Counted from the stretch's first letter, positions 25,187-42,152 are shown. The stretch is DNA of 64,000 bases from an uncultured bacterium (GCA_964354155.1 CAYGYG010000013.1:3696-67695), one strand, 5' to 3'. Numbers and translations: made by a program. Notes: a model not told the origin generated them from the letters alone.

Positions 25187-25214
25187 CCCCGTTAGACTGG
25201 AAGTCTAAACGGGG
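25187..25214 (+). repeat. 28-bp hairpin repeat CCCCGTTAGACTGGAAGTCTAAACGGGG, copy 1
   Basis: Identical copies at 25339, 31149, 36206 and 42125; 5'-truncated copy at 40723. Confidence 0.9.
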
Positions 25215-25237
25215 TAATCGACGATGTTTCATCGCTC

Positions 25238-25265
25238 TTGACATTGCCGTCTTTCGCACTATACT
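25238..25265 (+). promoter_or_regulatory. Promoter TTGACA-N16-TATACT between two hairpin repeats
   Basis: Near-consensus hexamers. Confidence 0.6.
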
Positions 25266-25338
25266 TCCGTGATTAACACTGTCACCGTAGCTCTTTGAAA
25301 ACACCATTAACTCCGTTCCGATGCTTCATCGCTGCCGG

Positions 25339-25366
25339 CCCCGTTAGACTGGAAGTCTAAACGGGG
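25339..25366 (+). repeat. 28-bp hairpin repeat, copy 2
   Basis: Identical to copy 1. A diverged copy follows at 25428-25458. Confidence 0.9.
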
Positions 25367-25522
25367 TCATTGCGAGGCCGTAGGCCGCGGCAATCTCATC
25401 CATTCATCTCTGTAAGCGGTCGTTTCACCCCGTTAGATATGGCAATGTCTAATCCGGGTCACTCTGAGTGAGACGAAGAGTCTCAATTAGATCCTTCGTC
25501 CCGGACGGGACTCAGGATGACA
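25366..25522 (+). repeat. REP/MITE-like palindromic elements (GTCATTGCGAG..GGCAATCT and GTCACTCTGAG..AGATCCTTCG..CTCAGGATGACA)
   Basis: Both match widespread miniature palindromic repeat types. The second is self-complementary at its ends (GTCACTCTGAG/CTCAGGATGAC). Confidence 0.6.
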
Positions 25523-25579
25523 GCTAGAGCCAACGAATTGCCTCAATAGCCAATTACCAACAACAACCAAGGAGCTAAC

Positions 25580-27568
25580 ATGAAGATTTTGTCGCTTGTT
25601 TTCGTCGCTCTGGTTGCTGCCGGCTTCAGCACGCCGCCGCAACTTGATCTGGTGCGCATCGACATCAGCCACCCCGACCAGGTCAAAGAACTGGATCGGG
25701 CCGGAATCATCATCAACTCGGTCGCCCCGGATCACGTCGTCGCCGAGATCGAGCGGTCCGAGTATTTGTCCCTGGCGGCGCGTGGTTTCCACGCCAAGCT
25801 GCTCCAGGAGAATATCTCCGGGGTATACTACGCAAACAGCCTGACCAAGTCGCCGTTCGGCCGGTATCTCACCTATACCGAATTCCGGGATTCGATGATC
25901 ACGATCGCCGGCAACAATCCCGGCATATGTCGTCTCGAGACGCTGGGCACGACGGCCCAGGCCCGTCTTATTCTAAGCATGAAGATCTCAGACAACGCCG
26001 CGGTCAATGAACAGGAGCCGCCGGTCCATTTCGACGGGGACACGCACGGCGACGAGAAGTGCGGTTGGGCGGCCTGCTGGGAGATGATCAAGTACCTGGT
26101 CAGTCGCTATACCACCGACACCCTGGTCGCCCGGCTGGTCAATACCCGGGAAATCTACATCGCGCCGATGTTCAACCCGGACGGGTTCAATTCCGGCAGC
26201 CGCTACAACTCCCGCACCGTCGATTTGAATCGTAACTGGGGCTGGATGTGGGGCAACGAATCGGCCTGCGGCGCCGACTTCATGAGCGAAAACGAAACCC
26301 GGGCCTTCATGGCCCATTTCTGGCGCCACCCGTTCGCGACCTTCATCTCCTATCACGGCGGCACGTTGATGATTTCCGAGCCCTGGTCCTACACCGACCG
26401 GATGGTCCTGCCCGAGAGCGTGCTCATTCACCATCTTTCGAGAGGCTACCGTTCCTACACCAACTATCCCTATGGTCAGGGTTCGATCGTCATGTATCTC
26501 ATCAACGGCTCTTCCAAAGACTACAACTACGGCTGCGGCGGCGAGATGGGATGGTCGGTTGAAGTCTGCATGACCAAGACCCCGCCGGCCGATTCGATCG
26601 ACCGGATCTTCGCGCGCGACGGCCCGGCGATGCGCTACATCATGAACAAGGCCGGGTTCGGCATTCACGGCCGGGTCACCGATTCGGTTACCGGTGCGCC
26701 GCTCTATGCCCACATCATGGTCGGCCCGACCAACGTCATTTCTCACAGCTGTCCGACCAACGGCGACTATCACCGGTTCTACCTGCCGGGCACCTACAGC
26801 CTTACCGTCCGGGCGCCGGGCTACGACCCCAAGACGATCAGCAACGTCGTTGTACCGAACAATACGCGTGACTCGTCGGTCACGGTCAACGTCGGGCTGA
26901 GACGCAATACCACTGCCCGGGTCTATGCGACGCGGGTCATCGGCAGCCAGTGGGTGACGACCACGTCGAATCTTACTTATCCGTACCGCGCCGTAGGTCC
27001 GCAGGACGGCCAAGCCTACCAGCTGGATGCGACCAAGTGGATCGTGCTGGCGATGGACGTGCCGATCAAGAACGTCTCGGGCAATGACTTCACGGTCTAC
27101 CGGTCAAGCGGCACCGGCACGGCGACGGTGCGCATCGGCAATTCCTGGTCCGGGTCGTGGTCCATCGCCGGTACCGCCAACGCCGCCGCCACATCATTCG
27201 ACATCGCCTCAACCGGACTCGATTCGGCGCGTTACGTCCGGCTGGAAGCGGCAAGCCAGTTCATGCTCGACGCGATCGAGGCATCGCAGCGGGTCGGCGT
27301 CGCGGAAGAACCGAGGGTCGTGCCACCGGTCATCGACGATTTCCGCATCTGGCCCAACGTAATGCGGAGCGGCTCGAAAGTTAACTTCGCCAACCCGCTG
27401 GCCAAGCCCGCCGAAGTGACCATCTACAATGCCGCGGGCCGTAAGGTCTGTGCTTTGACCATCCCGGTCCGTGTCTCGAGCGTGCCCTTTGCGGACCTTG
27501 CCGCCGGCGTCTATTTCGTCGGGCTTGAGGGCGCCGCCGCGCGGGCGCGAATCACCGTCGTACAGTAG
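25580..27568 (+). CDS. Exported M14 zinc carboxypeptidase with regulatory domain and T9SS-like C-terminal tail
   Basis: Signal peptide, HGDE, NPDG..R.N...DLNRN, SYHGG, WSVE catalytic Glu, LAAGVYFV tail. Confidence 0.88.
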   Translation: MKILSLVFVALVAAGFSTPPQLDLVRIDISHPDQVKELDRAGIIINSVAPDHVVAEIERSEYLSLAARGFHAKLLQENISGVYYANSLTKSPFGRYLTYTEFRDSMITIAGNNPGICRLETLGTTAQARLILSMKISDNAAVNEQEPPVHFDGDTHGDEKCGWAACWEMIKYLVSRYTTDTLVARLVNTREIYIAPMFNPDGFNSGSRYNSRTVDLNRNWGWMWGNESACGADFMSENETRAFMAHFWRHPFATFISYHGGTLMISEPWSYTDRMVLPESVLIHHLSRGYRSYTNYPYGQGSIVMYLINGSSKDYNYGCGGEMGWSVEVCMTKTPPADSIDRIFARDGPAMRYIMNKAGFGIHGRVTDSVTGAPLYAHIMVGPTNVISHSCPTNGDYHRFYLPGTYSLTVRAPGYDPKTISNVVVPNNTRDSSVTVNVGLRRNTTARVYATRVIGSQWVTTTSNLTYPYRAVGPQDGQAYQLDATKWIVLAMDVPIKNVSGNDFTVYRSSGTGTATVRIGNSWSGSWSIAGTANAAATSFDIASTGLDSARYVRLEAASQFMLDAIEASQRVGVAEEPRVVPPVIDDFRIWPNVMRSGSKVNFANPLAKPAEVTIYNAAGRKVCALTIPVRVSSVPFADLAAGVYFVGLEGAAARARITVVQ

Positions 27569-27597
27569 GGCCTGCGAAGGAGCGAAATAGCAGCGCT

Positions 27598-27652
27598 GAC
27601 CAGATGACCAGAAGATCAGTGGGAAGGGTACCGGCAGATCAGGTGATCAGTG
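27598..27652 (-). repeat. Left inverted arm (CTGAT family) of four-helix-bundle cassette 1
   Basis: Reverse complement aligns ungapped to 28072-28126 at about 36/55 positions (hand count). Confidence 0.7.
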
Positions 27653-28062
27653 TGAAAGATGGGGGAGGATCAGAATCACAGTATAATGCTATCGCAGGTT
27701 TTGAGAGACTGTGGGTGTGGCAGAAATCACACCGGCTCATGCTTGAAGTCCACTCTCTCTGCAAGAAACTGCCCAGGATTGAGAGGTTCAAGATCAGAGA
27801 CCAGTTGGAGCGTTCCTCATGCTCGGTTCCGGACAACATCGCTGAAGGCCACACGAGCTACTACTATCAGGACAAGATCAAGAGCTTCAATATCGCCCGA
27901 AAGGAAGCAGGGGAAACCCAGAATCATATTAGGAGTCTGCAGGGCAAGGGTTACCTACCAGCCGGGGATGCTGACGATTTTGTTAAGCGTTATGAAGAGG
28001 TCATCAAAGGGATCAACGGATATATCAATTGGGTGAAAGAGAAGAAGGGCGCCCGAAAATGA
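27652..28062 (+). CDS. Four helix bundle protein (23S rRNA intervening-sequence protein/bAvd-like family)
   Basis: FE.L.VWQKSH, FKIRDQLERS..SVPDNIAEG, IARKEAGET. GTG start at 27652 after AGGTGA. Confidence 0.88.
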   Translation: MKDGGGSESQYNAIAGFERLWVWQKSHRLMLEVHSLCKKLPRIERFKIRDQLERSSCSVPDNIAEGHTSYYYQDKIKSFNIARKEAGETQNHIRSLQGKGYLPAGDADDFVKRYEEVIKGINGYINWVKEKKGARK

Positions 28063-28071
28063 ACGACACGC

Positions 28072-28272
28072 GTCTGATGTGCTGATATGCCGATATCCTG
28101 GCTACTGATATTCGGATATCCTGATATGCTGCCTTCGGCATCGATTACAGTGATGGCAGGACTGAGATCCCTCGCTGCCCTCGGGACGATGTAAACATCG
28201 GATTACGATGATTCATTGCTGATTTCTGCTGTGCTGATACCCTGCCCACTGATGCCCGGATGCGCTGATATG
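28072..28272 (+). repeat. Right arm of cassette 1 (28072-28126) and a second direct CTGAT-family copy (about 28222-28272)
   Basis: CTGAT/CCGAT/CGGAT recur at 8-12-nt spacing. An inverted ATCACTGTAATC unit lies at 28143-28155. Confidence 0.7.
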
Positions 28273-28295
28273 CTTGAACTAATGAGGTCAACCCC

Positions 28296-29654
28296 ATGAT
28301 CGCTCTCTTGATCGTCTTTGCGTTCACGCCTTACTACTTTGTTCACAACAGCGATCCGCAGATCGGGCGATCCCCGGAAGGCGAGCCCAACCTGGATTCA
28401 GCCGTTGCCCAGATCGGGCGGATGCAGCCGGCGCCGAGCTTCATATACGTGGCCGGTGACATCTCCGACAACCCGCTGGATTCGGCCATCGTCCATGACC
28501 AGTGGACGCGTGCTCGGACGCGTTTCAACCGGCTCTCGATTCCTAAGTACTACGCGGCCGGCAACAACGACCTCGGGTATCCGAGCGAACTGGAAAGCGT
28601 GCCCAGGATGCTATATTGGTATCGCAACTTCTGGGGGCCGGACTGGTACTCCTTTGACCGCGACTCCTGCCACTACATCGTCCTCAACTCGACCCTGCTG
28701 GACGTGGCCAGCGGCCATGTCCACTACCCGGCGTCGCTGGCCCAGGACAGTTTCTTGCGCAGCGACATCCAGTCCATCCAGGGCCGGCGCTGCAAGCATC
28801 TCTTTTTTCTCTACCATTTCCCGACTTACATCAGCACACCGGACGAAGCCAATCAGACCGGCAATGTCCACCGGCCGCGTCGCGACACCATCCTCAAGTA
28901 CGTGCGCAACAACGGCTTCAGCGCGATTCTTGCCGGCCACATCCACGCCGACGGCCAGACTCTATATCGTTCCGCGGTGCTCCAGGCCGGCCTGGCCACT
29001 TGCACCGGGCCCCTGTCCAGCACCGGCTACCGGGTTGTGAAAGCATTCCATAATGGGATAGAGACCTTCACCGTCTTTCTCTCGGCCCCGTTCGACAGCG
29101 TGCCTATGGTCAATATCGTCACGCCCACGGCCAGCCCTGAGACCGTCGTGGTCAACCAGACGGTTTCGTTTCAAGCGGGCGTCGATACGGTGCGCTTCCC
29201 GGATTGGCGCGGGTTGTCCTTCCGGTGGAATTTCGGTGACGGCGACAGCTCGTGGGTACGGACCACGTCACATGTCTACCGGGATACCGGCAACTATCTC
29301 GTTGCGTTCACCGGTTACCAAGCGCCGCGCAAGGCGGCCAATTATCATCTCAGGATTCGCGTGAATCCGCCGTCGCTCGTTGGAGGTGCCAGGCCCGAAT
29401 TGCGGGACGGACGTACGGTGATCTTGAGCGCGGTGCTTGCCGGCGCGGTCGCGTTTGAAACGGCTGAACCGGGAAGAGTCACGCTTGCGCTCTACTCCAG
29501 CGACGGACGAAAAGCCGCGATTCTCATGGACCGCTATCTTGAAGCTGGTCGGCACCGGGCGGCGGTTCCATCCCGGCTGGCGGCCGGCGTCTATTTCGTC
29601 GAGCTTGCCACACCCTTTGAACGAGCAGTGAAGAAGACAATTCACCTGCGTTAA
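28296..29654 (+). CDS. Exported calcineurin-like metallophosphoesterase with PKD domain and C-terminal sorting-like tail
   Basis: SDPQ, GDISD, GNND, HFP and GHIH motifs; W.FGDG PKD; LAAGVYFV tail. Confidence 0.8.
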   Translation: MIALLIVFAFTPYYFVHNSDPQIGRSPEGEPNLDSAVAQIGRMQPAPSFIYVAGDISDNPLDSAIVHDQWTRARTRFNRLSIPKYYAAGNNDLGYPSELESVPRMLYWYRNFWGPDWYSFDRDSCHYIVLNSTLLDVASGHVHYPASLAQDSFLRSDIQSIQGRRCKHLFFLYHFPTYISTPDEANQTGNVHRPRRDTILKYVRNNGFSAILAGHIHADGQTLYRSAVLQAGLATCTGPLSSTGYRVVKAFHNGIETFTVFLSAPFDSVPMVNIVTPTASPETVVVNQTVSFQAGVDTVRFPDWRGLSFRWNFGDGDSSWVRTTSHVYRDTGNYLVAFTGYQAPRKAANYHLRIRVNPPSLVGGARPELRDGRTVILSAVLAGAVAFETAEPGRVTLALYSSDGRKAAILMDRYLEAGRHRAAVPSRLAAGVYFVELATPFERAVKKTIHLR

Positions 29655-29695
29655 GATCGGGAAAACGCGGGACGCAAGGACGCCACGGACATCTT

Positions 29696-30454
29696 ATGCT
29701 TAATGCGAGGCCATGCGGCACTGCAATCATCGCCATACTGAGCCTGCTCGCAGCTCTGCCGGTTTGCGCGTCCGAAACCGCCTGCCTCGGCTTGTCGTTG
29801 ACCATGCTCTTGATCCTGCGAAATCGTCGACGCAAGGCCGTCCGACGGATTGTCGCGTCAGGGTTCTCCCGGCGCCTGGTGTGGAAGGCCGCCTACCGTT
29901 TCGGCCGCAACCTGAGCGCGATGCTCAAGAATCGTGTCCACGACTGTGTCTCGGAGAGAGAGGTCGTCATTCACGGCGAAGACCAGATTTCAGCCTTGGC
30001 CCAAGGCGGCGTGGCCGTCGGTTACCATTTCGGTCCCTGGGAGCTATTGCCCGGAATTTTGGCCCGGCGCGGCCTGCGGATGGGTGTCGTGACCAATTTC
30101 TACGCCGCCCGGCCGATTGATCAGTTCCTACGCCGGTTCCGCGCACGCGACCGGGTGGAGCTGTTCTATGCCAACGGGCCGGAGAACGAAGTCCGCCGGA
30201 TGATCGAGTTCATAAGATCGGGCGGCACGGTCGGGGCGCTGATCGACGGCGATACGTTCGACCAGAAGTACCCGGTTCTCAAGCGTATCATCGATCGATT
30301 CGGGTTTCGTGTCGTCCCGGTTTTCGGCTATCTAAAACATGGGAAAATGCATGTGTTTGTCGGTCACCCGCTGACCGACGCTCTAAGGTATTCACCTGAG
30401 AATTACTTCTGGTTCTATGCCAGTCATGAATCCATGCTCCAAGCCGAGTCGTAA
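29696..30454 (+). CDS. Lysophospholipid/lipid A acyltransferase (LpxL-like)
   Basis: HFGPWE (Hx4D/E), G.L.D motif, N-terminal membrane anchor. Start uncertain. Confidence 0.7.
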   Translation: MLNARPCGTAIIAILSLLAALPVCASETACLGLSLTMLLILRNRRRKAVRRIVASGFSRRLVWKAAYRFGRNLSAMLKNRVHDCVSEREVVIHGEDQISALAQGGVAVGYHFGPWELLPGILARRGLRMGVVTNFYAARPIDQFLRRFRARDRVELFYANGPENEVRRMIEFIRSGGTVGALIDGDTFDQKYPVLKRIIDRFGFRVVPVFGYLKHGKMHVFVGHPLTDALRYSPENYFWFYASHESMLQAES

Positions 30455-30552
30455 CTCCCGCTTCCATTTCCTTGTCGTAACGCCCGATAAAACATAAGTT
30501 CCGTACTCATCTGGAATCCGACCTAAGGTGTTGTACTCATTGAGGTTGCCTG

Positions 30553-30580
30553 TTGACATTGAAGTCAGGTCAGTTATAAT
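30553..30580 (+). promoter_or_regulatory. Promoter TTGACA-N16-TATAAT with no downstream ORF for about 660 nt
   Basis: Perfect hexamers. Confidence 0.65.
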
Positions 30581-30610
30581 ACCAATCCCAGTTGTGTTAA
30601 TATGAGTAAT

Positions 30611-30644
30611 TCAGGTGAATACCTGATATCCATTATTCACCTGA
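30611..30644. promoter_or_regulatory. Perfect 11-bp inverted repeat (TCAGGTGAATA-N12-TATTCACCTGA), operator-like
   Basis: Seen directly, 30 nt downstream of the -10 box. Confidence 0.5.
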
Positions 30645-31148
30645 CGGATAGAATGTAATTTGAGAGCTTGTAGGGCTTTGTTCCATGCGTGGAGGCGTGG
30701 ACTCGCTCTTAAGGTAAATGGGGGAATCCCCAGCAGGTCCGCGCAATAATCAAATACGTGCGTTCTTTGCCGCACTCGGTTCTTAGCGGTCTATCACCGG
30801 CACCGATTGATGTTATCGCTGTGATCGGTTTTCTCGTCATCACTGTGATCAGCGGTTCTATCACTGTAATCGAACGCGCAGCGTGTGTAACCGAGGCGGG
30901 CGAAGCCTGCTGAAGCAGGGAACAGGATACAGGGCACAGCAATCAGGGAACCAGCATTGAGCGTACAGAGTAGCGAGTAGAGAGAAGCGACAGAAAACGC
31001 AATCCGTTTCGTCTATCGTCCTAGTGAGCGTAGCGAACGATCGTCCTTAGTCCGTCGCCCGTATCTCCCGATCTTCCGACCGCTGATACCCCGTCCACTG
31101 ACCATCTGATGTCCTGATCCGCTCACCTTCGGCGTTCATCACTGCCTG

Positions 31149-31176
31149 CCCCGTTAGACTGGAAGTCTAAACGGGG
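31149..31176 (+). repeat. 28-bp hairpin repeat, copy 3
   Basis: Identical to copy 1; lies directly upstream of the hicBA promoter (TTGACG-N16-TATAAT, 31210-31237). Confidence 0.9.
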
Positions 31177-31243
31177 TAATCGACGGTGCCCTGCACCCAG
31201 AAGATGGGCTTGACGTGGTCCTCTCAAGGAGTATAATGCAATC

Positions 31244-31471
31244 ATGAAGAGACGTAAGACGGAATACACCGTGATCATGCATCCGGCCGAAGAGGGCGGT
31301 TACTGGGTCGAAGTGCCGGCGCTCCCCGGATGTTATTCGCAGGGGGAGAGCGTAGAAGAGGCCCTTGAAGGCATCAAAGAAGCCATTGAGGTGCACCTGA
31401 TTGCCCTGAGAAAACAGGGCAGGAAGGCACCCAAGGACCAGACCCTCGTGCTCAGTCACGTGGAAGTCTAG
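31244..31471 (+). CDS. hicB: HicB family antitoxin (HicB-like N domain), probably leaderless
   Basis: YTVI.HPAEEGGYWVEVPALPGC.SQGES.EEAL..IKEAI. Confidence 0.9.
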   Translation: MKRRKTEYTVIMHPAEEGGYWVEVPALPGCYSQGESVEEALEGIKEAIEVHLIALRKQGRKAPKDQTLVLSHVEV

Positions 31472-31504
31472 GGCCTACTTCCTCCATTGCTTTCCATCTC
31501 TTGA

Positions 31505-31726
31505 ATGGGCAAACAACTCAGAGGACTCAAAGCCAGAGAAGCGATCATAGCTTTCGTGCGGGCTGGCGGAGTTCGGAAACTTGGCAAGGGCAGTCACGTC
31601 AACATTAAGATGCCCAACGGCATGATTATGACAATTCCGGGGAAAGGCGAACTCAAGATCGGCTTGCTGAAAAACGCGATTCATAAAGCAGGTCTGACCG
31701 AAGAGCAATTCGCTCGCCTGCTCTAG
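31505..31726 (+). CDS. hicA: HicA family toxin
   Basis: L.G....E.I.AF...G.....GKGSH...K......TIP....LK.GLL...I..AGL..E.F..LL. Confidence 0.88.
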   Translation: MGKQLRGLKAREAIIAFVRAGGVRKLGKGSHVNIKMPNGMIMTIPGKGELKIGLLKNAIHKAGLTEEQFARLL

Positions 31727-31858
31727 CGGTCACCCGATCTTCCGACCGCTTATACCCCTCCCACTGATTCGCTGATCTTCTGATCTACTTGTTTTCTTTT
31801 CACCCTTTACGTTTTCCCCTTCACCTTTAACCATTCACTGACATAATAGGAGGCCTTA

Positions 31859-33529: not shown

Positions 33530-33587
33530 AAAATGATCCCGGATGCACGATGCAGGATACTCGATAGCCAAGGTAAGGAGATCAGCA

Positions 33588-33968: not shown

Positions 33969-34190
33969 CGCTTCTTGTAGCTTCTCCTGTGTCCATCCTG
34001 TATCTTGTGTCGTTCATCTTGTTTCATGCCTTGCATATCGTGTATCGAGTATCCTGGATCTTATCTCGTGTCATTCTCGTCGTTCCTGCTTCGCATCATG
34101 TATCCTGGATCCCATGCCGTTCTCTTTTATCGTGTATCCTGTATCGAGTATCATTCTTTTCCATCGTGTATCATGTATCGTGGATCAGGC
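33969..34190 (+). repeat. Heptamer (TATCNTG-like) periodic tract; an inverted block lies upstream of the gene at 33541-33567
   Basis: tatcgtg-tatcgag-tatcctg-gatc blocks. Upstream ggatgca-cgatgca-ggatact-cgatag is the reverse-complement pattern. Confidence 0.8.
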
Positions 34191-34266
34191 CTTAAACCCG
34201 TTGTTGACAATTCTCGCCCTATGGATACACTTCATGTAGGAGATGACCTAATAACCTGTTCTTCAC

Positions 34267-35352
34267 ATGCGATCTAAAATCCTTCTAATCAATCCGGACG
34301 AAGCGGAGATTTCTCAGCTCCAGCATCTGCTGGAGACTGAGGGTCATAAGGTCAAGAAAGTCTACTCGGGCGAGGCGGCTCGCCGCGTCTGCGAGGACGA
34401 TACTTACGACCTGGTTCTTGTCTCCAGCACCCTGAAGGACACCAATGTCGGCGAGCTTATCCACAAACTGCGCCAGCCCTGTCCCGAGACCGAGTTTATC
34501 ATCATTACGAACCTGGCCCAATTCCAGAATCTGTCCGGCGTGAGCCACTATGATGTCGCCGGCTATCTCATTCCGCCGATCACCGAGGACAAGGTGCGGG
34601 AGGTTTCCCAGCGGGCGATCCGTCAGCACGAACTGCTCCGGGAGAACCGGCGTCTGATCGACGCCATCACCCAGGCCAAGAAGGAGTGGGAGGCGACGGT
34701 CGACGCCATCGAAGACCCGATCTTCATCGTCGATGCCGACCACAAAATCGTCCGCGCCAACCTCGCGCTGTTCCGGATGCTCAACAAGGGCGTTTCCCAG
34801 GTCATCGGCCAGAAGTGCAGTATCCTGCTCCACATGTCCGATGCCGCGCCGTCGGATTGTGTCATGGAAACGGTCAAGCGCGAGGCCGGCCCGATCACGT
34901 CCGACCTTACCTGCCGGGGTTTGGGCGACGGCAAGTACATCTGCGCCGCCTACCCGCAGATATTCGTCGGGGGATTCGGCACGGTTCATGTCCTGCGTGA
35001 TGCCCGGAAAGTCATCGGTGACGACCGCTACCGCCAGACCTTCGAGAAGAACCCGGTGCCGTCCCTGCTTCTCGAATACGACACCAGAAAGATTATCGAC
35101 GCAAATGCCAAAGCCCGCAACCTGCTCGGCTACAAGAAGGACGAGCTGATCAACGTAGCGTTTGACCATTTTCTGACCAGTGAGGACCGGGACAGCATCA
35201 TCATGGCCATGCCCAAGAATTTCAACGGCATGATTCACGAGGTGAAAGCCCAGGTCCTCAACCGCGAGAATCTCAAGCTCCAGGTCCGGCTCAGCTTCGG
35301 TATTGTTGAATTCGACAAGAAGATGGTCCTTCAAGTCGTCATCATCCCGTAG
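34267..35352 (+). CDS. Response-regulator receiver plus two PAS domains, no output domain
   Basis: REC-like N-terminus, KKEWEATVDAI.DPI...D....I.RAN PAS, second PAS (IDAN..A..LLGY...EL). Promoter TTGACA-N16-TACACT at 34204-34231. Confidence 0.8.
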   Translation: MRSKILLINPDEAEISQLQHLLETEGHKVKKVYSGEAARRVCEDDTYDLVLVSSTLKDTNVGELIHKLRQPCPETEFIIITNLAQFQNLSGVSHYDVAGYLIPPITEDKVREVSQRAIRQHELLRENRRLIDAITQAKKEWEATVDAIEDPIFIVDADHKIVRANLALFRMLNKGVSQVIGQKCSILLHMSDAAPSDCVMETVKREAGPITSDLTCRGLGDGKYICAAYPQIFVGGFGTVHVLRDARKVIGDDRYRQTFEKNPVPSLLLEYDTRKIIDANAKARNLLGYKKDELINVAFDHFLTSEDRDSIIMAMPKNFNGMIHEVKAQVLNRENLKLQVRLSFGIVEFDKKMVLQVVIIP

Positions 35353-35481
35353 GTTCCTCTTTTTTCTTCACCTTTTTCTGCGCCTGGCGCTTTGTCAAAT
35401 CCGCAATCCAAAATCTTAACGGTGCTTTATCGCTGTAATCGTGTGTTCTTATCACTGTAATCTACGCGTAGCGACGCGGAG

Positions 35482-35580
35482 CGTGGCAATCCCATTCTCT
35501 GTGTGCATCCTTATTCTCTCTACTTGCTACTCGCTACTTATTACAGCATCCGTTTGCATCCGCTCCCATCCGTTTGAATC
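35482..35580 (+). repeat. ~100-bp near-identical direct repeat, copy 1 (copy 2 at 37857-37962)
   Basis: cgtggcaatcccattctctgtgtgcatccttattctctctactt...actcgctacttattacagcatccg...catccgtttgaatc is shared. Confidence 0.85.
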
Positions 35581-35592
35581 TTTGACTTTCTA

Positions 35593-35799
35593 ATGATGAA
35601 ACGCCTCTGGTGTAATAAATTCCGCTCACGCCGCGATGCCGACCGCTTTGATCAGGTCTACTACGAGCGGATGACGTCAAAGCAGCGGCTGGAGATTGTG
35701 CAGATGTTGAGGGATTCAGTCTTCATGCTGCCTGATATATCCAGACATGAAAACCGAAAAAGACTACGAAGAACTATTAAGGTTGTTCAACAAGCATAA
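35593..35799 (+). CDS. Small hypothetical protein, partner of the downstream nucleotidyltransferase
   Basis: AD.FD..YY..MT..QRLE pattern; overlaps the next gene. Confidence 0.6.
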   Translation: MMKRLWCNKFRSRRDADRFDQVYYERMTSKQRLEIVQMLRDSVFMLPDISRHENRKRLRRTIKVVQQA

Positions 35800-36214
35800 G
35801 GTCAAGTACTGCATCGTCGGAGCCTACGCGGTTGCCTACTATGCCCGGCCGAGATATACGAAGGACCTCGATATTTTCATTGATCCGGTGTGGGACAACG
35901 CGGCACGGCTCGTGAAAGCGTTGGAAGAGTTCGGATTCAAGGGTTTGAACCTACGGCCGGAAGACTTCATGGTCAAGGGAAGCGTGGTTCAGCTTGGTTA
36001 TGAACCGGTTAGGGTTGATATTGTAAGCTCGATCAGCGGCTGTTCTTTCGGCACGGTCTGGAAGAGCCGGGAGGTTGGCCGATACGGGAAAGAAAAGGTC
36101 TTCTTCATCGGTCTGGCCCAGTTGATCAAGAACAAACGCGCCGCGCAGCGCGCGCAGGACAAGGCGGACCTTGAGCTTCTCGCCAAAGTGCGTGCCCGGC
36201 GGCGACCCCGTTAG
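35747..36214 (+). CDS. Nucleotidyltransferase-fold protein (DUF6036-like)
   Basis: VGAYAV..Y..PRYTKDLDI, NK.A..R.QD.ADL. Confidence 0.8.
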   Translation: MKTEKDYEELLRLFNKHKVKYCIVGAYAVAYYARPRYTKDLDIFIDPVWDNAARLVKALEEFGFKGLNLRPEDFMVKGSVVQLGYEPVRVDIVSSISGCSFGTVWKSREVGRYGKEKVFFIGLAQLIKNKRAAQRAQDKADLELLAKVRARRRPR

Positions 36215-36233
36215 ACTGGAAGTCTAAACGGGG
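36206..36233 (+). repeat. 28-bp hairpin repeat, copy 4 (supplies the TAG stop of the nucleotidyltransferase)
   Basis: Identical to copy 1; the ORF ends in CCG-CGT-TAG-like overlap within the repeat (stop at 36212-36214). Confidence 0.9.
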
Positions 36234-36353
36234 TAATCGACGGTGCTCCGCACCGAACGATACTAACGCTCATCGCTGTCCCGTACGGGACGATCTCGTC
36301 AACGCTGTTGATTTTCGTATGATTTGATGTATAATCTACGCAATGGAGGCCTC

Positions 36354-36563
36354 ATGCGTACCACATTACGCAGTGTAACAATAAAAGGCGACAAGCCACT
36401 AGTTGTCATTTCTGCCGAGCAATACGAGAGGATGATGGAAACGATCGAACTACTTTCTATCAACCCTGATTTGGCAGATGACCTAAAGGCAGAAAGAAGA
36501 AGAATGGACAAGGGTGAGTATATCACCCTTAGTGATTATAAGAAGAAATACCGCCGACACTGA
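36354..36563 (+). CDS. Phd/YefM-like antitoxin
   Basis: VVISAEQYERMMETIELLS.NP. GGAGG RBS; promoter TTGATT-N16-TATAAT at 36308-36335. Confidence 0.8.
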   Translation: MRTTLRSVTIKGDKPLVVISAEQYERMMETIELLSINPDLADDLKAERRRMDKGEYITLSDYKKKYRRH

Positions 36564-36832
36564 TGTATCAGGTTCGTTTATCGCACTCCGCTGAGAGGTT
36601 CTTGGATCATATGCACCGATCAAACCGTAGCCTATTCGGCAGACTCATGCAATCCTTGGATAAGGTATCAAAAGATCCCTTTAGCGGGAAGGCGTTAATG
36701 GGGAATCTAAAGGGCCACTATTCGTACCGGGTCGGTGATTACCGAATACTGCTGGAAATCGATAAGGCGAAGCACATCGTCTATGTCGAGAAGATTGAAC
36801 ACCGCAGTGCTGTTTACCAGAGGCACTCTTAG
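36563..36832 (+). CDS. RelE/ParE family toxin
   Basis: MYQV.L...A..FL, P..GK.L.GNL.G.YS.RVGDYRIL..I, I.HRS.VY. Confidence 0.9.
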   Translation: MYQVRLSHSAERFLDHMHRSNRSLFGRLMQSLDKVSKDPFSGKALMGNLKGHYSYRVGDYRILLEIDKAKHIVYVEKIEHRSAVYQRHS

Positions 36833-37116
36833 CGGTCTAAGGTTCTAACGCTTTTAATGTGCTCAACGCTCCTATCACTGTAATCGTGTTTTCTTATCAC
36901 CGTAATCGACGATGCTTCATCGCTGTAATCGATGTGCCTCCGGCACAAACGTTCTAACGATATTAACGTTATAACCCTCTTCATCACTGTAATCAGCCTT
37001 TCTCATCGCTGTAATCGATTCCGCTTCAGCGGAAACCAAATAAACTTGATAAACCAGATAAACCAAGAGAACGTTCCTAACGCTATTAACGATATTAACG
37101 GCAGATGCTTCATCGT
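36833..37116. repeat. Mosaic spacer: five ATCA/GCTGTAATC units, TTCCGCTTCAGCGGAA hairpin, AAACCA tract, TAACG tracts
   Basis: Units at 36872, 36894, 36917, 36981 and 37003; hairpin at 37019-37034. Confidence 0.8.
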
Positions 37117-37458
37117 ATGAAAATCATCAGTGCGCCAACCAACAAAAGTATCATTCTCGCCGAGTACAATCGTTTCTTCAAGACGATGATCAAGGCGGTT
37201 GTGGACATTGACAAGGAAGTGATGGCGCTCGATGCCGAACTGCACGCCGATCTGGAAGCTGTTCTCGTCGGCGAGGGAAGTCGGCAGGAAAACTTATGGG
37301 GCATAAACCTGTACCTGGGGAAACCGCGGGAAGAGTGGATCGAGTACACGGCGCTCGTCAACATCCGGCCCTCGATGGACAACCGGGGCATGGAAGTCGA
37401 GAACCCCGATATTCGCAAGCGGTTGCAGGAAGTCGTGGGCAAGCTGATCACGGAATGA
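37117..37458 (+). CDS. DUF5674-like protein
   Basis: KAVVDI....MA.DAELHADLE..L...GS.QENLWGINLY, NIRP...NR. Confidence 0.75.
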   Translation: MKIISAPTNKSIILAEYNRFFKTMIKAVVDIDKEVMALDAELHADLEAVLVGEGSRQENLWGINLYLGKPREEWIEYTALVNIRPSMDNRGMEVENPDIRKRLQEVVGKLITE

Positions 37459-37459
37459 T

Positions 37460-37810
37460 ATGTATCGGCTGAAATTCCACACGAACCTGGCTTCGCGTTG
37501 GTCTGAATTCCCGCCAAGCACGCAGCTGCTGATGGTGGCAAGCGAGCTGAGCCGTGCCAAGAACATGACGATCCGCCATGACCATGCCGAGGCAACGAAC
37601 GCCCTTGAACGTGCCTTTGAACTGCTCGACATGACCATAAGCCGGGCGCGGACCATTGGGATGCTGACCGAGCTTCACCGTTTCCGCGAAGTACTCGCCG
37701 ATCTCTACTCAGGCGGGGAGTATCAAGCCGAGAGGGTCCAGAAGTTGATTGAAGTGCTCGTGTCACTCGACAAAGACAGCTGCCGCGTCCTCGGCGCCGT
37801 AGCTTCCTAG
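37460..37810 (+). CDS. Hypothetical helical protein coupled to the DUF5674-like gene
   Basis: RW.......QL..V.SEL.RA, LERAFELLD.T, EL.R.RE.L. Confidence 0.7.
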   Translation: MYRLKFHTNLASRWSEFPPSTQLLMVASELSRAKNMTIRHDHAEATNALERAFELLDMTISRARTIGMLTELHRFREVLADLYSGGEYQAERVQKLIEVLVSLDKDSCRVLGAVAS

Positions 37811-38052
37811 CTCGATAGCTTAATCGCCTGATTGCTTAATTTGCCAGTAGCGCGGACGTGGCAATCCCATTCTCTGTGTGCATCCTTATTCTCTCTACTT
37901 ACCACTCTCTACTCGCTACTTATTACAGCATCCGACTGCATCCGCTCTCATCCGTTTGAATCGATGTCCCTCTGGGACAATCGCTCTCATCCCCCGAAAA
38001 TTGCGCTTGCCAATCTTGATGATATGCATATAGTTATAAATAGGAGAATTCG

Positions 38053-38250
38053 ATGACCAAAGTAAAAGAGATCAATCATTATACGCTTGAAGAACTAAGT
38101 GATCTTATCGAGCAGAAGATTCTTGAGATCCTTGGCGATCCGGATTGCGGGTTGGAGTTACGGGAGGATTTTAAGCGGGAGATACTCAGGAGAATCCGTC
38201 AGAAACATAGAAGGATTCCCCACGAAGAGGTTCTGAGAAAGTTTGGCTAA
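38053..38250 (+). CDS. Putative antitoxin
   Basis: 66 codons; overlaps the RelE gene; promoter TTGCCA-N16-TATAGT at 38007-38034; RBS AGGAG. Confidence 0.7.
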   Translation: MTKVKEINHYTLEELSDLIEQKILEILGDPDCGLELREDFKREILRRIRQKHRRIPHEEVLRKFG

Positions 38251-38509
38251 GATCGAGTGGGCTGACTCGGCGATTGCCGACCTTGCAAGGATTGACCGGC
38301 CAATTGCTCAACGCATAGTGAGAAAAGCTACCTGGTTAGGAAGCAACTTTGAAAACATTACCCCTGATCCGTTATCAAAGGACATGAAGGGTCTTTTCAA
38401 ACTCCGGGTCGGTGATTGGCGTATCATTTATACGCTGGAAGACGAGCGAATAACAATTCAATTCGTTGGTCATCGAAGTGACATCTACAAGCGTTTGCAG
38501 CGCTCCTAA
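38243..38509 (+). CDS. RelE/ParE family toxin
   Basis: IEW...A..DL..ID, L.....GLFKLRVGDWRIIY, VGHRSDIY. Confidence 0.9.
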   Translation: MAKIEWADSAIADLARIDRPIAQRIVRKATWLGSNFENITPDPLSKDMKGLFKLRVGDWRIIYTLEDERITIQFVGHRSDIYKRLQRS

Positions 38510-38743
38510 CGCTCAAAGTGATCTGAACGCTCCTATCACCGTAATCAGCCGTTTCATCACTGCGCCGTCGTGTGCGCCCTGAGTATTTCGAGGGGTAATC
38601 GATTCCGCTTCAGCGGAAACCAAACAAACCAAAACCAGATAAACCAGACAAACCAAAATGCCCATTTGACCCCAGGGGACCTTTGACCCCGTAGGTACAT
38701 CTTTCTATAATGAAGAAGAGCAGTAATTTAAGGAGGTGTTCAC

Positions 38744-38968
38744 ATGAAGCAAGTCAAGATTATCGTTGAAAAACATCCCGACGGCTATGTGGCTTATCCC
38801 CTAGGGCTTAAGGGGGTTGTAGTTGGACAAGGAGATACTTACGAAGAGGCTCTTTCAAATGTGAAGTCAGCCATCCGTTTTCATATTGAGACTTTTGGGA
38901 GGGAGGTCCTTGAGCTTGAGCCGCCGATCCTTGAGGCATTCGTTGCTGAGGCTGGAGTCGAAGTTTGA
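38744..38968 (+). CDS. hicB: HicB family antitoxin
   Basis: IIVEKH.DGYVAYP.GL.G..VGQGDTYEEAL.NVK.AI.FH. Confidence 0.85.
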   Translation: MKQVKIIVEKHPDGYVAYPLGLKGVVVGQGDTYEEALSNVKSAIRFHIETFGREVLELEPPILEAFVAEAGVEV

Positions 38969-39207
38969 TGAATAAGTTCCCTGTTGATGCCCCAAAGCCA
39001 AAGATAATCAAGGCATTGGAGGTTCTTGGTTTTCGCGTTGTGCGTGAAAAAGAGCATATTTCCATGGTGCGTGAGAATCCTGATGGAAGCAAGACTCCCT
39101 TGACCATGCCTAATCACCCATAGATAAAGGCCTCTACTCTAAGAACGATTTGCACTCAAGCGGGTATCTCAAGGAATGAATTCTTGGAAGCCTATAAGAA
39201 AGCATAG
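38968..39207 (+). pseudogene. hicA: HicA family toxin with in-frame TAG at 39121-39123
   Basis: MNKFPVDAPK..IIKALE.LGF..VREKEHISM...TMPNHP*IKASTLRTICTQAGISR.EFL. Absent from the supplied ORF track. Confidence 0.8.
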
Positions 39208-39382
39208 ATATGGCAACGGCCGATAACAGCGCGGTTGTACTTAGTTTCCCTCACATCCCGCGGCCTTGCCGCTCAAATGTAGAATGTAGAGCTGAAAGTC
39301 CCGTCCTCAGGGAATTTGACCCCAGGTTCTCCTTGACAGAAGGACAAAAAGTGAATAATATATCCTTCGTATAAGGACAAAA

Positions 39383-40669
39383 ATGGTTAGCGCTGAGACG
39401 ATAAAGGAAATCATTAGATCAAACGAAGATTTCATCCTAAGGGAAATAGGCGCGGTTGTCGCACGAGAGGGTCTGTGCCTGCCTTCGGGGACCCGCAAAG
39501 TAGGGGTGATCTACGGTGTTCGGCGCAGCGGCAAGACCTTCCTGCTCTACGATCTCTTCAAAAAGCATGCCACCGGTGCTCTCTATATCGATTTTGAGGA
39601 CGAAAGGATCAGGGACATACGTCTGGGGGATCTGGAAAGGATCAAAGACGCCTTCTTCGAGCTGAAGCCTCAGCTTTTGGGCAAAGATAAATGCCTATTC
39701 CTGTTTGATGAGATTCAAAATGTGCCCGGCTGGGAGAAATTCGCGCGGCGGATGGTTGAAAAGGAACGAATCGGTATATTCGTGGCTGGTTCGTCTTCAA
39801 AGATCACGCCCCGGCAACTCCACACGTCTCTGCGGGGCCGGGCATGGTCCATCGCTCTTTATCCGTTTTCTTTCCCGGAATTCTTGAGATTGAAAGGTAT
39901 TGATCCATCCCGACCGATCTATGGTAAAGGCCGCGTTCTTGTAAAAAGCTGGTTCATGCAGTACTTAAAGTGGGGCGGATTCCCCGAGATTGGCTTTTCG
40001 GAATCGGATTTCGAAAGGACCAAAATCCTCGGCGAATACCTAGATGCAATGTTTTTCAAGGATCTAGTTGAGCGATTCAACATCACCAATATCCATCTCC
40101 TTGAGGCCCTCAAGGAGAGTCTGTTTTCGTCTTTTTCGGGGAAATTCTCACTTGCCTCTTTCTACAAGCAATACAAAGGCAAGTTCCCGTTTTCCAAAGA
40201 CATGTTGTACTCCTATTATCGATACTTCACGGAGAGCATGTTGGTTTCCGAGGTCAGACTGTATTCCCCGTCGGCATACCGGCGAATGAGAAATCCACCT
40301 AAGGTCTACCTCGTGGATCCGGGCCTGGGGCGTAAGCTGGGGACACAGGACCTCGGTCGTCGGCTTGAAAATCTGGTCTTTATCGAATTGAAAAGGAAGG
40401 GATACGAACTTCACTATTTCGAAGAGCGGAATGAGTGTGACTTTGTGGTGAAAGAAGATGCTAATACAAGGCGGGCGATTCAAGTCTCCTGGGAATTGAA
40501 CCAAGACAACCGCGAACGAGAAATAAACGGTCTCTGTCAGTGCTGCCGTTCACTCGGCCTGAAACATGGTACAATCATAACGTCTGACCAGGAATCCGAG
40601 GAGCGAATTGACGGTATTGCTGTGAGGGCGATTCCCTTCTGGAAATGGGTAACACAAGCAAGTCCATAG
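39383..40669 (+). CDS. AAA_14 family ATP-binding protein with C-terminal DUF4143 (nuclease-like) domain
   Basis: GVRRSGKT Walker A, FDEIQ Walker B, GGFPE, K.Y.VDPG, EN.VF.EL, ECDF. Confidence 0.9.
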   Translation: MVSAETIKEIIRSNEDFILREIGAVVAREGLCLPSGTRKVGVIYGVRRSGKTFLLYDLFKKHATGALYIDFEDERIRDIRLGDLERIKDAFFELKPQLLGKDKCLFLFDEIQNVPGWEKFARRMVEKERIGIFVAGSSSKITPRQLHTSLRGRAWSIALYPFSFPEFLRLKGIDPSRPIYGKGRVLVKSWFMQYLKWGGFPEIGFSESDFERTKILGEYLDAMFFKDLVERFNITNIHLLEALKESLFSSFSGKFSLASFYKQYKGKFPFSKDMLYSYYRYFTESMLVSEVRLYSPSAYRRMRNPPKVYLVDPGLGRKLGTQDLGRRLENLVFIELKRKGYELHYFEERNECDFVVKEDANTRRAIQVSWELNQDNREREINGLCQCCRSLGLKHGTIITSDQESEERIDGIAVRAIPFWKWVTQASP

Positions 40670-40722
40670 TTGACGCTATTAATCCATCCCGCCTGTCACG
40701 TGTGATCACCTATTACATCGTG

Positions 40723-40800
40723 GTTAGACTGGAAGTCTAAACGGGGTAATCGATTCCGCTTCAGCGGAAACCAAATAAACTTGATAAACCAGATGAACCA
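40723..40800 (+). repeat. 5'-truncated 28-bp hairpin followed by TTCCGCTTCAGCGGAA and AAACCA tract
   Basis: gttagactggaagtctaaacggggtaatcgattccgcttcagcggaaacc; same order as at 42125-42205. Confidence 0.85.
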
Positions 40801-40821
40801 AGAGGACGTTCTAACGAAATC

Positions 40822-41235
40822 ATGAAACTCCAATCCTTCCAGGACCTTAAAGTGTGGCAGTTGTCTTCAGCATGTTCAAATGATATATCACAGTTGATCA
40901 AAACCTTCCCCCGTGCTGAACGTTTTGAACTCGCTGATGATCTTTTGCGTGCAGCGCGATCTGTACCAGCTAACATAAGCGAAGGATGGGGGAGATTGTT
41001 CCCAAAAGAGAAAATATCATTCTACAATATTTCTTACGGTTCAGCCGAAGAGTGCTCTAACCACTTAATCGAAGCGCTCAACAATGGCTATATAGATAAT
41101 GAAACTAACAGTAGATATCAAAAGAGAATACACGTTATTTCTGTCAAACTTACCAATCTCATTATTTCCACGCGCAAGCGTATCAATTCTTCAGTCCCGC
41201 AGGGACGTGTCTCCAGTCTGCAAAAGCAGCCGTGA
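40822..41235 (+). CDS. Four helix bundle protein
   Basis: SFQDLKVWQ, FP..E.F.L...L.RAARSVPANISEG.GR. Confidence 0.9.
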   Translation: MKLQSFQDLKVWQLSSACSNDISQLIKTFPRAERFELADDLLRAARSVPANISEGWGRLFPKEKISFYNISYGSAEECSNHLIEALNNGYIDNETNSRYQKRIHVISVKLTNLIISTRKRINSSVPQGRVSSLQKQP

Positions 41236-41320
41236 CTTCAGGAGTGAAACGACATGATTACAGTCCGAAGGACGTATTCTGTTCAGGCGTAGCCGTGACT
41301 CCAGGAGTGAAACGACGTGA
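41228..41320 (+). repeat. Two 30-bp direct repeats (28/30 identical, 63-nt period) interleaved with short tetraloop hairpins
   Basis: agccgtgacttcaggagtgaaacgacatga (41228-41257) and agccgtgactccaggagtgaaacgacgtga (41291-41320). Confidence 0.75.
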
Positions 41321-41429
41321 CCTCAGCTCGCAGAGCGTGTTATGTTCAAAGTAGAGATTTGACCCCAGGTGACGCGGCCTTGGCGCAAACGCCCATTGAC
41401 AGCAAGAAGAATCAAAGTATAATAAGTGT

Positions 41430-41648
41430 ATGACAAAACTGGCTCAGATTAAGAAGAGATACCGGAATGAGTGGCTGGCTTTCCGAGTAGCGAAGGAAAC
41501 ACCAGATGGGCATGTTTATGGTCGGCTGATTTCGCACCATCCTGATCGACGTAGACTTCATGAAATCCTGCGTAAAAAGATGATAAAAGGAGTATATATA
41601 TCTTATTCAGGTCCGTTGGTTAAATCGGGCTATACAGTGATGTTCTAA
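41430..41648 (+). CDS. Small hypothetical protein (DUF5678-like), probably leaderless
   Basis: KKRY.NEW.AF, L..HHPDR..L. ATG 6 nt after TATAAT of a perfect TTGACA-N16-TATAAT promoter (41396-41423). Confidence 0.65.
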   Translation: MTKLAQIKKRYRNEWLAFRVAKETPDGHVYGRLISHHPDRRRLHEILRKKMIKGVYISYSGPLVKSGYTVMF

Positions 41649-42025
41649 TGCAACTTCCGTTAAAAATACCTATCGTAGTGGCAAGAATAAGGGTCGATGG
41701 GCCGAAGGCTTTCCGAGAAATCGATATGATATTTGACACGGGCGCGGTTTATACAATGATTTCTTGGGATATCGCAAAGGATATCGGTTACGACCCAGCT
41801 GTTTCTGAGAAGAGAACATCGATCATAACCGCCAACGGAATAATAGAAGTGCCACTGATAAAAGTCAAAAGAATTACCATCAAGACTGCGGTTGCGGATG
41901 ATGTTGAAGTAATATGCCATGATATTCCGGAAGTGGTTGGAATCGAAGGGCTACTTGGTCTAAGTTTTATAAGGCATTTTCGCACCGTTATCGACTATCG
42001 AAAGAAACAATTGCTGATAAGTTAA
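41648..42025 (+). CDS. Retropepsin-like (clan AA) aspartic protease
   Basis: IFDTGA catalytic motif, GLLGL.F. TAATG coupling to the upstream gene. Confidence 0.85.
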   Translation: MQLPLKIPIVVARIRVDGPKAFREIDMIFDTGAVYTMISWDIAKDIGYDPAVSEKRTSIITANGIIEVPLIKVKRITIKTAVADDVEVICHDIPEVVGIEGLLGLSFIRHFRTVIDYRKKQLLIS

Positions 42026-42124
42026 TCCGTCTACATCCGCTCTGATCCGTATGAATCGCGTTCTATCTTATCACTGTAATCAGCCGTTTTATCACTGTCA
42101 TCGACGATGCTTCATCGGTGCCTG

Positions 42125-42152
42125 CCCCGTTAGACTGGAAGTCTAAACGGGG
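42125..42152 (+). repeat. 28-bp hairpin repeat, copy 5
   Basis: Identical to copy 1. Confidence 0.9.

Follow-up and report, generated by a model that had tools for sequence, protein, structure and literature searches.

A bulged 28-bp hairpin repeated in the spacers of an accessory-gene array: a candidate low-copy palindromic insert in an uncultured bacterium

Does an identical 28-bp hairpin that recurs along an array of toxin-antitoxin (TA) and other accessory modules mark the borders of those modules, or is it itself the segment that comes and goes? The question is raised by a stretch of 64 kb from an uncultured bacterium (GCA_964354155.1, CAYGYG010000013.1:3696-67695), here called the window, whose coordinates are counted from its first letter and in which the 28-mer CCCCGTTAGACTGGAAGTCTAAACGGGG is repeated exactly. 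An earlier reading, made from the sequence alone, took the folded repeat for a candidate recombination site of an undescribed cassette system. The explanation that we favour, with middling confidence, is that the 28-mer is the core of a non-coding palindromic insert of about 32 nt, low in copy number, resembling repetitive extragenic palindromes (REPs) or miniature inverted-repeat transposable elements (MITEs) and belonging to one lineage of candidate division WOR-3, and that it is not a cassette attachment site.

An exact match search of the whole window placed the 28-mer at 25187, 25339, 31149, 36206 and 42125 (n = 5), always on the + strand, with no match in 100 shuffles and none expected. 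The 5'-truncated copy in the same orientation and the diverged copy at 25428, both listed by the sequence-only reading, were also present, and the six to seven copies of the window are all inside 17 kb (Table 1). The hairpin has 11-12 pairs, a loop of 3-5 nt and, in agreement with the bulged stem claimed before, a single extrahelical A in the 3' arm. Its predicted folding energy is -9.6 kcal/mol as DNA and -15.8 kcal/mol as RNA, and no shuffle equalled either fold. The diverged copy still folds, at -5.8 kcal/mol, through a different and longer inner stem (0 of 200 shuffles were as good). All the copies are intergenic except that at 36206, which overlaps the end of an open reading frame (ORF) by 9 nt. 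Searched against Rfam 15, the window gave nothing above gathering score and the part between 24900 and 44200 nothing at E up to 5, a tRNA/tmRNA scan was negative, a look-up of RNA runs turned up none that contains the region, and a literature search with the motif strings returned nothing but unrelated primer matches.

The repeated unit exceeds 28 bp. Most copies are accompanied by a CCKG leader and by TAATCGA plus a small second hairpin, and their alignment gave the unit ATCRCTG – CCKG – 28-mer – TAATCGA – small GC hairpin. CCKG and hairpin form a 32-nt insert at ATCRCTG^TAATCGA (^, junction) with no target duplication. A left flank ATCRCWG or ATCGGTG followed by CCKG and the hairpin was found in four of the five exact window copies and in a metagenome contig (L001, see below), and TAATCG lies directly 3' in five of six window copies and in that contig. 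The same junction, as ATCRCYG^TAATCRA, is unoccupied at 16 sites on the + strand from 4280 to 45519, one of which, at 4301, separates housekeeping genes. If up to two mismatches are allowed, the motif ATCACTGTAATCG occurs 20 times against 1.2 expected, 19 times on the + strand and usually as two or three units with a 22-nt period. Immediately 3' of all 14 intergenic TAATCRA sites counted there is a hairpin of 4-7 bp, with at least five different stem sequences (CGGTGC, CGATG, TGTGCC, TTCCGC and TCATTAT among them). Between two ordinary genes, at 4166-4368, ladders, 22-nt units, a TAATCGA hairpin, a further ladder and a promoter follow one another; because the whole arrangement also separates ordinary genes, this type of spacer characterises the genome in general and does not denote the border of a cassette. 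Inside such a stereotyped spacer, the 28-mer is an insert that may or may not be there.

Population data were obtained from Logan contigs of public sediment metagenomes, which are short assembled contigs. Empty junctions, proposed as a check together with the sequence-only reading, were indeed recovered there, with hairpin-free alleles of the same locus at three sites. At 42125, run X1 has a contig of 363 nt that agrees at every base with 41900-42117 and 42152-42264 (218 + 113 nt), and in which 'CT' replaces the 34 nt between the flanks, restoring CATCGCTG^TAATCGA. The filled allele is carried by a contig from another sample (L011) that is identical to the window, and run X3 holds a third allele with a 33-nt non-hairpin filler after ATCACTG. 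In the spacer between the CTP-synthase-like (pyrG-like) and M14 peptidase genes, X1 contigs of a somewhat more divergent strain are without copy 1 and read TTATCACCG^TCATCGACGATG; copy 2 is absent from an X1 contig together with its small upstream hairpin, 11 nt standing there for 25309-25365. The polymorphic segment was the hairpin alone (32-57 nt), and the genes between hairpins were not the unit. Presence and absence of the hairpin in natural populations indicate that something moves or removes it as DNA. Since there is no target duplication and the microhomology does not exceed 1 nt, repeated precise deletion is less likely than insertion into canonical sites.

Contigs with the 28-mer numbered about 2-11 per metagenome holding the organism, which is roughly the copy number of the window. 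New contexts, at low copy number and with invariant stems, came from runs X1, X2, X4, X5, X6 and X9; the context of copy 36206 was also found in X1 and that of the truncated copy at 40719 in X2. Across contexts and samples the stems are invariant and the flanks differ, the only variants being small loop insertions and one contig without the bulged A. Unrelated contexts have only (T)GCCTG in common upstream; downstream of the 28-mer stands either TAATCG(A) with a small hairpin of varying sequence or a GTCATTGCGAG... element. A scan of metagenome contigs yielded one match, the JGI contig L001, in which a nucleotidyltransferase/HEPN pair is followed by a hairpin of 108 nt whose ends are the same (CCCCGTTAGAAG...CTTCTAACGGGG) and then by ATCACTG-CCTG-28-mer-TAATCG. 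Because this contig carries a 108-nt hairpin with the ends of the 28-mer, a family with conserved clamps and a variable interior exists. Genome contigs gave no match with a loop-relaxed pattern and one distant domain match with the OmpA-like protein of the window, a close relative being absent from that collection. Finally, 22 hairpins were returned from viral contigs by a search for the clamp with any loop; all of them are without the CCTG and TAATCGA flanks and were discarded as unrelated convergent stems. At least a third of them, by eye, lie between A-rich and T-rich runs, like bidirectional terminators.

Some further observations concern the spacers. The stereotyped ones are at 4166-4368, 25047-25579, 30455-31243, 35353-35592, 36833-37104, 38510-38743, 42026-42240 and 45492-45614, and their order is periodic ladders (about 7-11 nt), two or three 22-nt TATCACTGTAATC units, TAATCGA with a variable hairpin, a TAACG/AACCAAA ladder and a promoter. 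The sole exception to the strand rule is a ATCACTGTAATCGA-plus-hairpin module inverted at 28130-28215 (motif at 28142, - strand), downstream of the first four-helix-bundle gene. What had been taken for a stub of the repeat at 38592 is an ordinary TAATCGA module after an unrelated 33-nt non-hairpin filler ending in GGGG, and its status as a remnant was not confirmed. Two loci thus have a filler in the slot of the hairpin, CGCCGTCGTGTGCGCCCTGAGTATTTCGAGGGG at 38564-38596 of the window and a variant of it at 42097 in run X3; it represents a second type of insert, of about 32 nt, for the junction ATCACTG^TAATCGA. Another element, GTCATTGCGAGG...GCAATCTC, has conserved ends and a variable interior (window 25366-25398; 8450-8502 and 11656-11708 of contig L008; about 11657 of L004), and is also present in distant WOR-3 relatives. 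It stands directly 3' of the 28-mer in at least four independent contexts, occurs in many others, and reached a summed contig depth of 50-78x against 3-5x for the flanks in four sediment metagenomes.

The hairpin would be copied as DNA into pre-existing spacers, and two routes may be considered. The first would be a single-strand transposition of the HUH/Y1 type with the enzyme supplied in trans. This would agree with the bulge in the hairpin, with insertion 3' of a specific short sequence, with the lack of duplication and with the fixed strand, which, given the positive GC skew, is presumably the lagging-strand template. The second would be short-tract gene conversion between the spacer modules, which are homologous and have 60-76 nt in common on the right side of the junction. 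If excised as a circle, the element would read AAACGGGG followed directly by CCTGCCCC at its joint. The hairpin is probably transcribed with the upstream gene as the RNA structure predicted above, and it would probably give at most a modest 3'-end protection or damping of read-through.

A co-occurring recombinase or HUH gene had also been proposed as something to look for. In the window there is a HUH gene but no integrase, and the repeats of the HUH unit are unlike the hairpin. No tyrosine or serine recombinase and no Phage_integrase was found among the 58 window ORFs scanned. The HUH gene resembles those of REP-associated tyrosine transposases (RAYTs) and encodes a protein of 340 aa with HUH and Tyr motifs and a C-terminal helix-turn-helix (HTH) region (PF01797, E = 9e-10); against NF047646 it scored 68 bits and did not reach the cut-off of 80. 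No other DNA-transaction enzyme was found in the window, and the gene is 15 kb away from the hairpins. Homologs of the protein exceed 7,400, many of them on contigs of about 1.1 kb that are barely longer than the gene, and in this the family behaves as expected for an independent insertion sequence (IS). Because the inverted repeats differ and the family is IS-like, a link between this gene and the hairpin is only a possibility, and the RAYT-like enzyme was not retained as mobiliser of the hairpin, which its inverted repeats do not match.

Several points weigh against a mobile insert. No transposase is linked to the hairpin, and the inverted repeats of the RAYT-like unit (GGGGACGTTGGTTCCG) do not resemble the 28-mer and occur nowhere else in the window. 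To our knowledge, no element shown to transpose is as small as a single hairpin of 32 nt, and REPs are thought to move as doublets of about 100 nt. The empty and filled alleles of 42125 also differ at one adjacent base (C/G), which conversion fits equally. In addition, Logan contigs are short and rare variants are dropped from them, and the perfect conservation of the stem could reflect selection for function and not recent spread.

It is mainly in Proteobacteria that small palindromic repeats have been described; they are very abundant there, and how they spread is still debated. The hairpin would be a very small (32-nt) and low-copy example in an uncultured candidate phylum, and its signature is clean: one exact insertion point, no duplication, and filled and empty wild alleles with otherwise identical flanks, which makes the movement of single hairpins directly testable.

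Compared with known systems, the hairpin would work most like a component of REPs and bacterial interspersed mosaic elements (BIMEs) or like a miniature insert of the IS200/IS605 type. As in REPs and BIMEs, the 28-mer is an imperfect GC-rich palindrome within the range of 20-40 nt, extragenic, mostly downstream of co-directional genes, lineage-specific and plausibly transcribed. As in BIMEs, other short conserved motifs surround it in a mosaic, and as in REP systems the window also contains a RAYT-like HUH gene. The 108-nt relative with the same ends resembles the long hairpins of the REPIN type (Bertels and Rainey 2011, PMC3116915). However, one end of REP palindromes bears the tag GTAG or CGTC (Di Nocera et al. 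2013, PMC3733652), whereas the 28-mer is flanked by CCTG/CCGG (5') and TAAT/TCAT (3'), or ATTA and CAGG on the reverse strand. A RAYT gene is flanked by two inverted copies of its cognate REP (Nunvar et al. 2010, PMC2817692), and the RAYT-like gene of the window (10301-11323) is flanked by the unrelated GGGGACGTTGGTTCCG and not by the 28-mer. REPs usually exceed 100 copies per genome, and the window and the metagenome contigs showed roughly ten contexts of the 28-mer. The 28-mer also lacks inverted pairs and is found strictly at one sequence junction.

With the IS200/IS605 family and palindrome-associated transposable elements (PATEs) the 28-mer shares a hairpin with an extrahelical base and insertion 3' of a short target without duplication; its single orientation, on the presumed lagging-strand template, is as in IS200/IS605. 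The TnpA Y1 HUH enzymes of 'peel and paste' transposition are a superfamily listed in bioRxiv 10.1101/279083. Those elements need distinct left and right subterminal hairpins, whereas here there is one hairpin in 32 nt, and no IS200/IS605 TnpA with matching ends was found in the window. Correia/NEMIS and Rickettsia palindromic elements are of 100-150 nt with terminal inverted repeats, and Correia elements show a duplication of the dinucleotide TA. The hairpin is similar to them as a non-autonomous palindromic insert beside promoters that can enter coding sequence (copy 36206), and differs in its 32 nt and in the absence of duplication.

The first alternative is that the hairpin is a selected RNA or transcription element, namely a factor-dependent terminator, a 3'-end protector or an insulator of TA modules, spreading passively by recombination between spacers; we regard this as possible but rather unlikely. 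It would account for a hairpin whose orientation is always sense to the flanking genes, whose RNA fold is stable and which stands 24-75 nt upstream of strong -35/-10 pairs at 25238, 31210, 36296 and 42209. Canonical hairpin-plus-U terminators showed no enrichment in our scan and none is in the spacers, and other CCCC...GGGG hairpins are found at equivalent places in distant relatives. In E. coli, REPs are reported as 3'UTR (3' untranslated region) regulators in a preprint (bioRxiv 10.64898/2026.03.23.713779). The sense strand of the spacers is C-rich and G-poor (skew -0.10 vs +0.02 in genes), which is also seen in Rho-dependent terminator regions and could mean termination of the Rho type. However, the 3' flank of the copies is TAATCGA or TCATTGC, so that the RNA continues as UAAUCGA and not as the U-tract of an intrinsic terminator, and the terminator scan misses the 28-mer. 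The hairpin is dispensable at the same locus in otherwise identical sequence, most of the equivalent spacers are without it and already have the small TAATCGA hairpin, and a bulge-less variant exists.

Several data bear on the exchange of modules. The claim that the copies lie at cassette borders was not supported by counting: between 25.0 and 45.6 kb, only five of the 17 spacers of at least 60 nt bear the hairpin, and it precedes accessory genes in 4 of 11 cases and backbone genes in 1 of 6 (Fisher p = 0.60, not significant). Cassette content and order differ between strains, and none of the breakpoints that could be resolved is at the hairpin. The IVP3 module (about 40802-41341) has a depth of about 0.1 in X5, X6, X8 and X9, its neighbours reaching 18-fold in X6, and contigs without it join 37065-type leader sequence to 41342; of the two breakpoints of this cassette, one is some 55 nt rightward of the hairpin and the other at 41342. 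In a 1690-nt contig of X6, corresponding to 31192-31400 and 41379-42057 of the window, a hicBA-like module (90% identical) is found behind the aspartyl-protease pair and not behind the acyltransferase gene, and the contig has no 28-mer. The array as such is a true hot spot at which accessory modules are shuffled, but its borders are not signalled by the hairpin. As minor observations on this exchange, the edges of IVP3 share a similar 9-mer (ACGTTCTAA / ATGTTCAAA), and an X2 contig is without the 593 nt between two TTTGACCCCAG motifs (window 38682-39276, which covers orf74 and a truncated ORF resembling hicA). The joint reads CTATG; its short side has only 31 nt, and this deletion is tentative.

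A doubtful alternative is that the real joining site is ATCRCTG^TAATCGA with the adjacent small hairpin, where a HUH enzyme would insert 3' of ATCRCTG and generate a co-oriented head-to-tail array. In the X6 contig the homology to hicBA starts at the TAATCGA module, no more than 16 nt rightward of where the hairpin would stand, and because of this the junction, not the hairpin, stays in play as a border. The junction and the hairpin that follows resemble a left end of the IS200/IS605 type, with a cleavage site a few bases 5' of the hairpin foot. Each inserted unit would end in a new ATCRCTG, which would lead to a head-to-tail pile-up in a single orientation, and the units might be the 22-nt 'empty' units, the 32-nt hairpin, the 33-nt filler and possibly whole promoter-bearing TA modules. 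If this were true, the 28-mer would be the smallest passenger of an undescribed HUH-driven, integron-like cassette system in WOR-3.

That the hairpin itself is an attC-like folded single-strand recombination site delimiting mobile cassettes of an undescribed system, as first proposed, seems improbable. Part of that proposal stands: an orientation-locked, non-random bulged palindrome, polymorphic in presence and absence, lies in a dynamic array of co-oriented and partly self-promoted TA, HEPN and four-helix-bundle modules, which recalls attC sites and clusters of attC sites lacking an integron integrase (CALINs), and the order and content of the cassettes vary among strains. Besides, at 36206, at 40719 and in the tandem of L001 the left flank is non-standard or truncated and the right flank intact, as if the hairpin led the module. 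Nor is it quite right that the repeat matches no attC consensus, as had been stated, since the stem sequences GTTAGAC and GTCTAAC fit the R-box letters GTTRRRY and RYYYAAC; their polarity to the loop is wrong, however, and other attC features are absent. In attC the order is R''(RYYYAAC)...R'(GTTRRRY), with the AAC/GTT ends facing the centre, and the 28-mer, GTTAGAC-TGGAA-GTCTAAAC, is inverted. The length of attC sites is 57-141 nt, and they possess L boxes, extrahelical bases and a terminal structure that varies, against 28 nt and a single bulged A here; the attC reading was rejected for box polarity and length. Integron cassettes, moreover, each end in one attC site at the 3' side, with intI nearby or, in CALINs, without it. 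The remainder of the proposal did not hold, as the polymorphic unit is the hairpin itself, the spacers are occupied far from one per cassette and in one case between two non-accessory genes, the breakpoints of IVP3 are off the hairpin, and the relocated hicBA-like contig is without it. Additionally, no joint between two hairpin copies was seen in the metagenome contigs and no intI or other integrase in the 58 ORFs.

In pdif modules of Acinetobacter plasmids, XerC/D sites flank TA and resistance modules, have alternating orientations and keep their place when the modules move; these sites are also 28-bp imperfect palindromes among small TA-bearing modules, unlike which the 28-mer copies are direct, sparse and dispensable. 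A duplex protein-binding site, either for a tyrosine recombinase of this Xer type or an upstream operator or activator site of the cassette promoters, is very improbable: the perfectly conserved 28 bp can be parsed as CCCCGTTAGAC / TGGAAG / TCTAAACGGGG, in the 11-6-11 layout of dif, and its centre is about 71.5, 81.5 and 104.5 bp upstream of inferred transcription starts, but the arms are one base out of register, which is unusual for a duplex site, the copies do not alternate, it is the site and not the DNA between sites that is inserted or deleted, no recombinase or cognate regulator is nearby, and the similarity to the dif consensus is no better than chance.

Two resemblances, of ATCACTG to the V(D)J heptamer and of CTGTAAT to an anticodon loop, were dropped as coincidence.

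Table 1. Coordinates of the hairpin copies and related features in the 64-kb window.
Feature	Coordinates	Strand	Remarks
Hairpin copy 1 with CCTG leader	25183..25214	+	Exact match; between ...TTATCACAG^ and ^TAATCGA
Hairpin copy 2 with CCGG leader	25335..25366	+	Exact match; GTCATTGCGAGG...GCAATCTC element directly 3'
Diverged family member CCCCGTTAGATATGGCAATGTCTAATCCGGG	25428..25458	+	Outer 5' arm the same, inner stem longer, two changes in 3' arm
Hairpin copy 3 with CCTG leader	31145..31176	+	ATCACTG^...^TAATCGA; -35 of the hicBA promoter 34 nt downstream
Hairpin copy 4	36206..36233	+	Left flank coding; TAATCGA and second hairpin downstream
5'-truncated copy	40719..40746	+	CCTGCCCC gone; GTTAGAC... 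kept from 40723; three mismatches, in the 5' clamp only
Hairpin copy 5 with CCTG leader	42121..42152	+	Exact match; CATCGGTG^...^TAATCGA
TAATCGA with small GC hairpin (module)	31177..31198	+	Equivalents at 25215, 36234, 40747, 42153 and at empty sites
Unoccupied target, example ATCGCTG^TAATCGA	36919..36932	+	One of the 16 on the + strand
33-nt non-hairpin filler CGCCGTCGTGTGCGCCCTGAGTATTTCGAGGGG	38564..38596	+	In an ATCACTG^...^TAATCGA slot; no significant fold
IS-like unit	10233..11347	+	RAYT-like HUH gene 10301-11323; perfect 16-bp inverted repeats GGGGACGTTGGTTCCG

Nearly all the genes of the window are on the + strand, and from 25 to 46 kb backbone genes (peptidase, phosphoesterase, acyltransferase, OmpA-like, response regulator, type IX secretion system (T9SS) cargo and wecB) are interleaved with small accessory modules. 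The latter comprise hicBA, phd/parE, a second parE pair, DUF5674, AAA_14/DUF4143, the aspartyl-protease pair, HTH-nucleotidyltransferase/HEPN and four four-helix-bundle genes (23S_rRNA_IVP). That copies stand upstream of TA or four-helix-bundle modules was correct for 31149, 36206, 40719 and 42125: hicB starts 68 nt downstream of the first, phd/parE follows the second, a 23S_rRNA_IVP gene the third and the HTH-nucleotidyltransferase/HEPN pair the last. The copy at 36206 also supplies a stop codon, as had been noticed, its CCC CGT TAG being the last codons and stop of a 155-aa nucleotidyltransferase-like ORF. Two of the exact copies, as well as the diverged one, are in the gap between the pyrG-like and M14 peptidase genes, both non-accessory. 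Promoters of the sigma-70-like type are enriched (30 vs 14.3 ± 3.1) and lie directly upstream of the modules. The 789-nt spacer that separates hicB from the acyltransferase gene has a perfect TTGACA-16-TATAAT promoter at 30553-30580. No gene is annotated downstream of it, and its transcript may be a small RNA or carry a small ORF.

The OmpA-like protein has its best homologs in metagenome-assembled genomes of candidate division WOR-3, with identities of up to 55%. In exact-protein look-ups the nucleotidyltransferase-like and IVP3 proteins were unrecorded, and the other proteins led only to short Logan contigs identical to the window. In WOR-3 genomes whose OmpA is 44% identical (L004-L009, about 11.6-19.5 kb of each locus), the same position in the polysaccharide cluster is taken by co-oriented AAA_14/DUF4143, HicA, IVP and MqsA genes. 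The spacer motif was absent from the distant WOR-3 relatives fetched; their spacers consist of ladders of the 9-nt GTAAACTNN and of other CCCC...GGGG hairpins, such as AATCCCCTCTAAAAAGAGGGGTGTC, which is present six times in L004. On the basis of these spacers, GC-clamped hairpin modules in spacer mosaics recur in the phylum with lineage-specific sequences. The position of the hot spot is conserved across distant WOR-3 genomes; its content and repeats are not.

Finally, the AAA_14/DUF4143 ATPase of the window (39383-40669) has hundreds of homologs, with 54-64% identity, in many phyla, including Cloacimonadota, Elusimicrobiota, Atribacterota, Bacteroidota and Nitrospirota, which suggests that this gene has been widely transferred.

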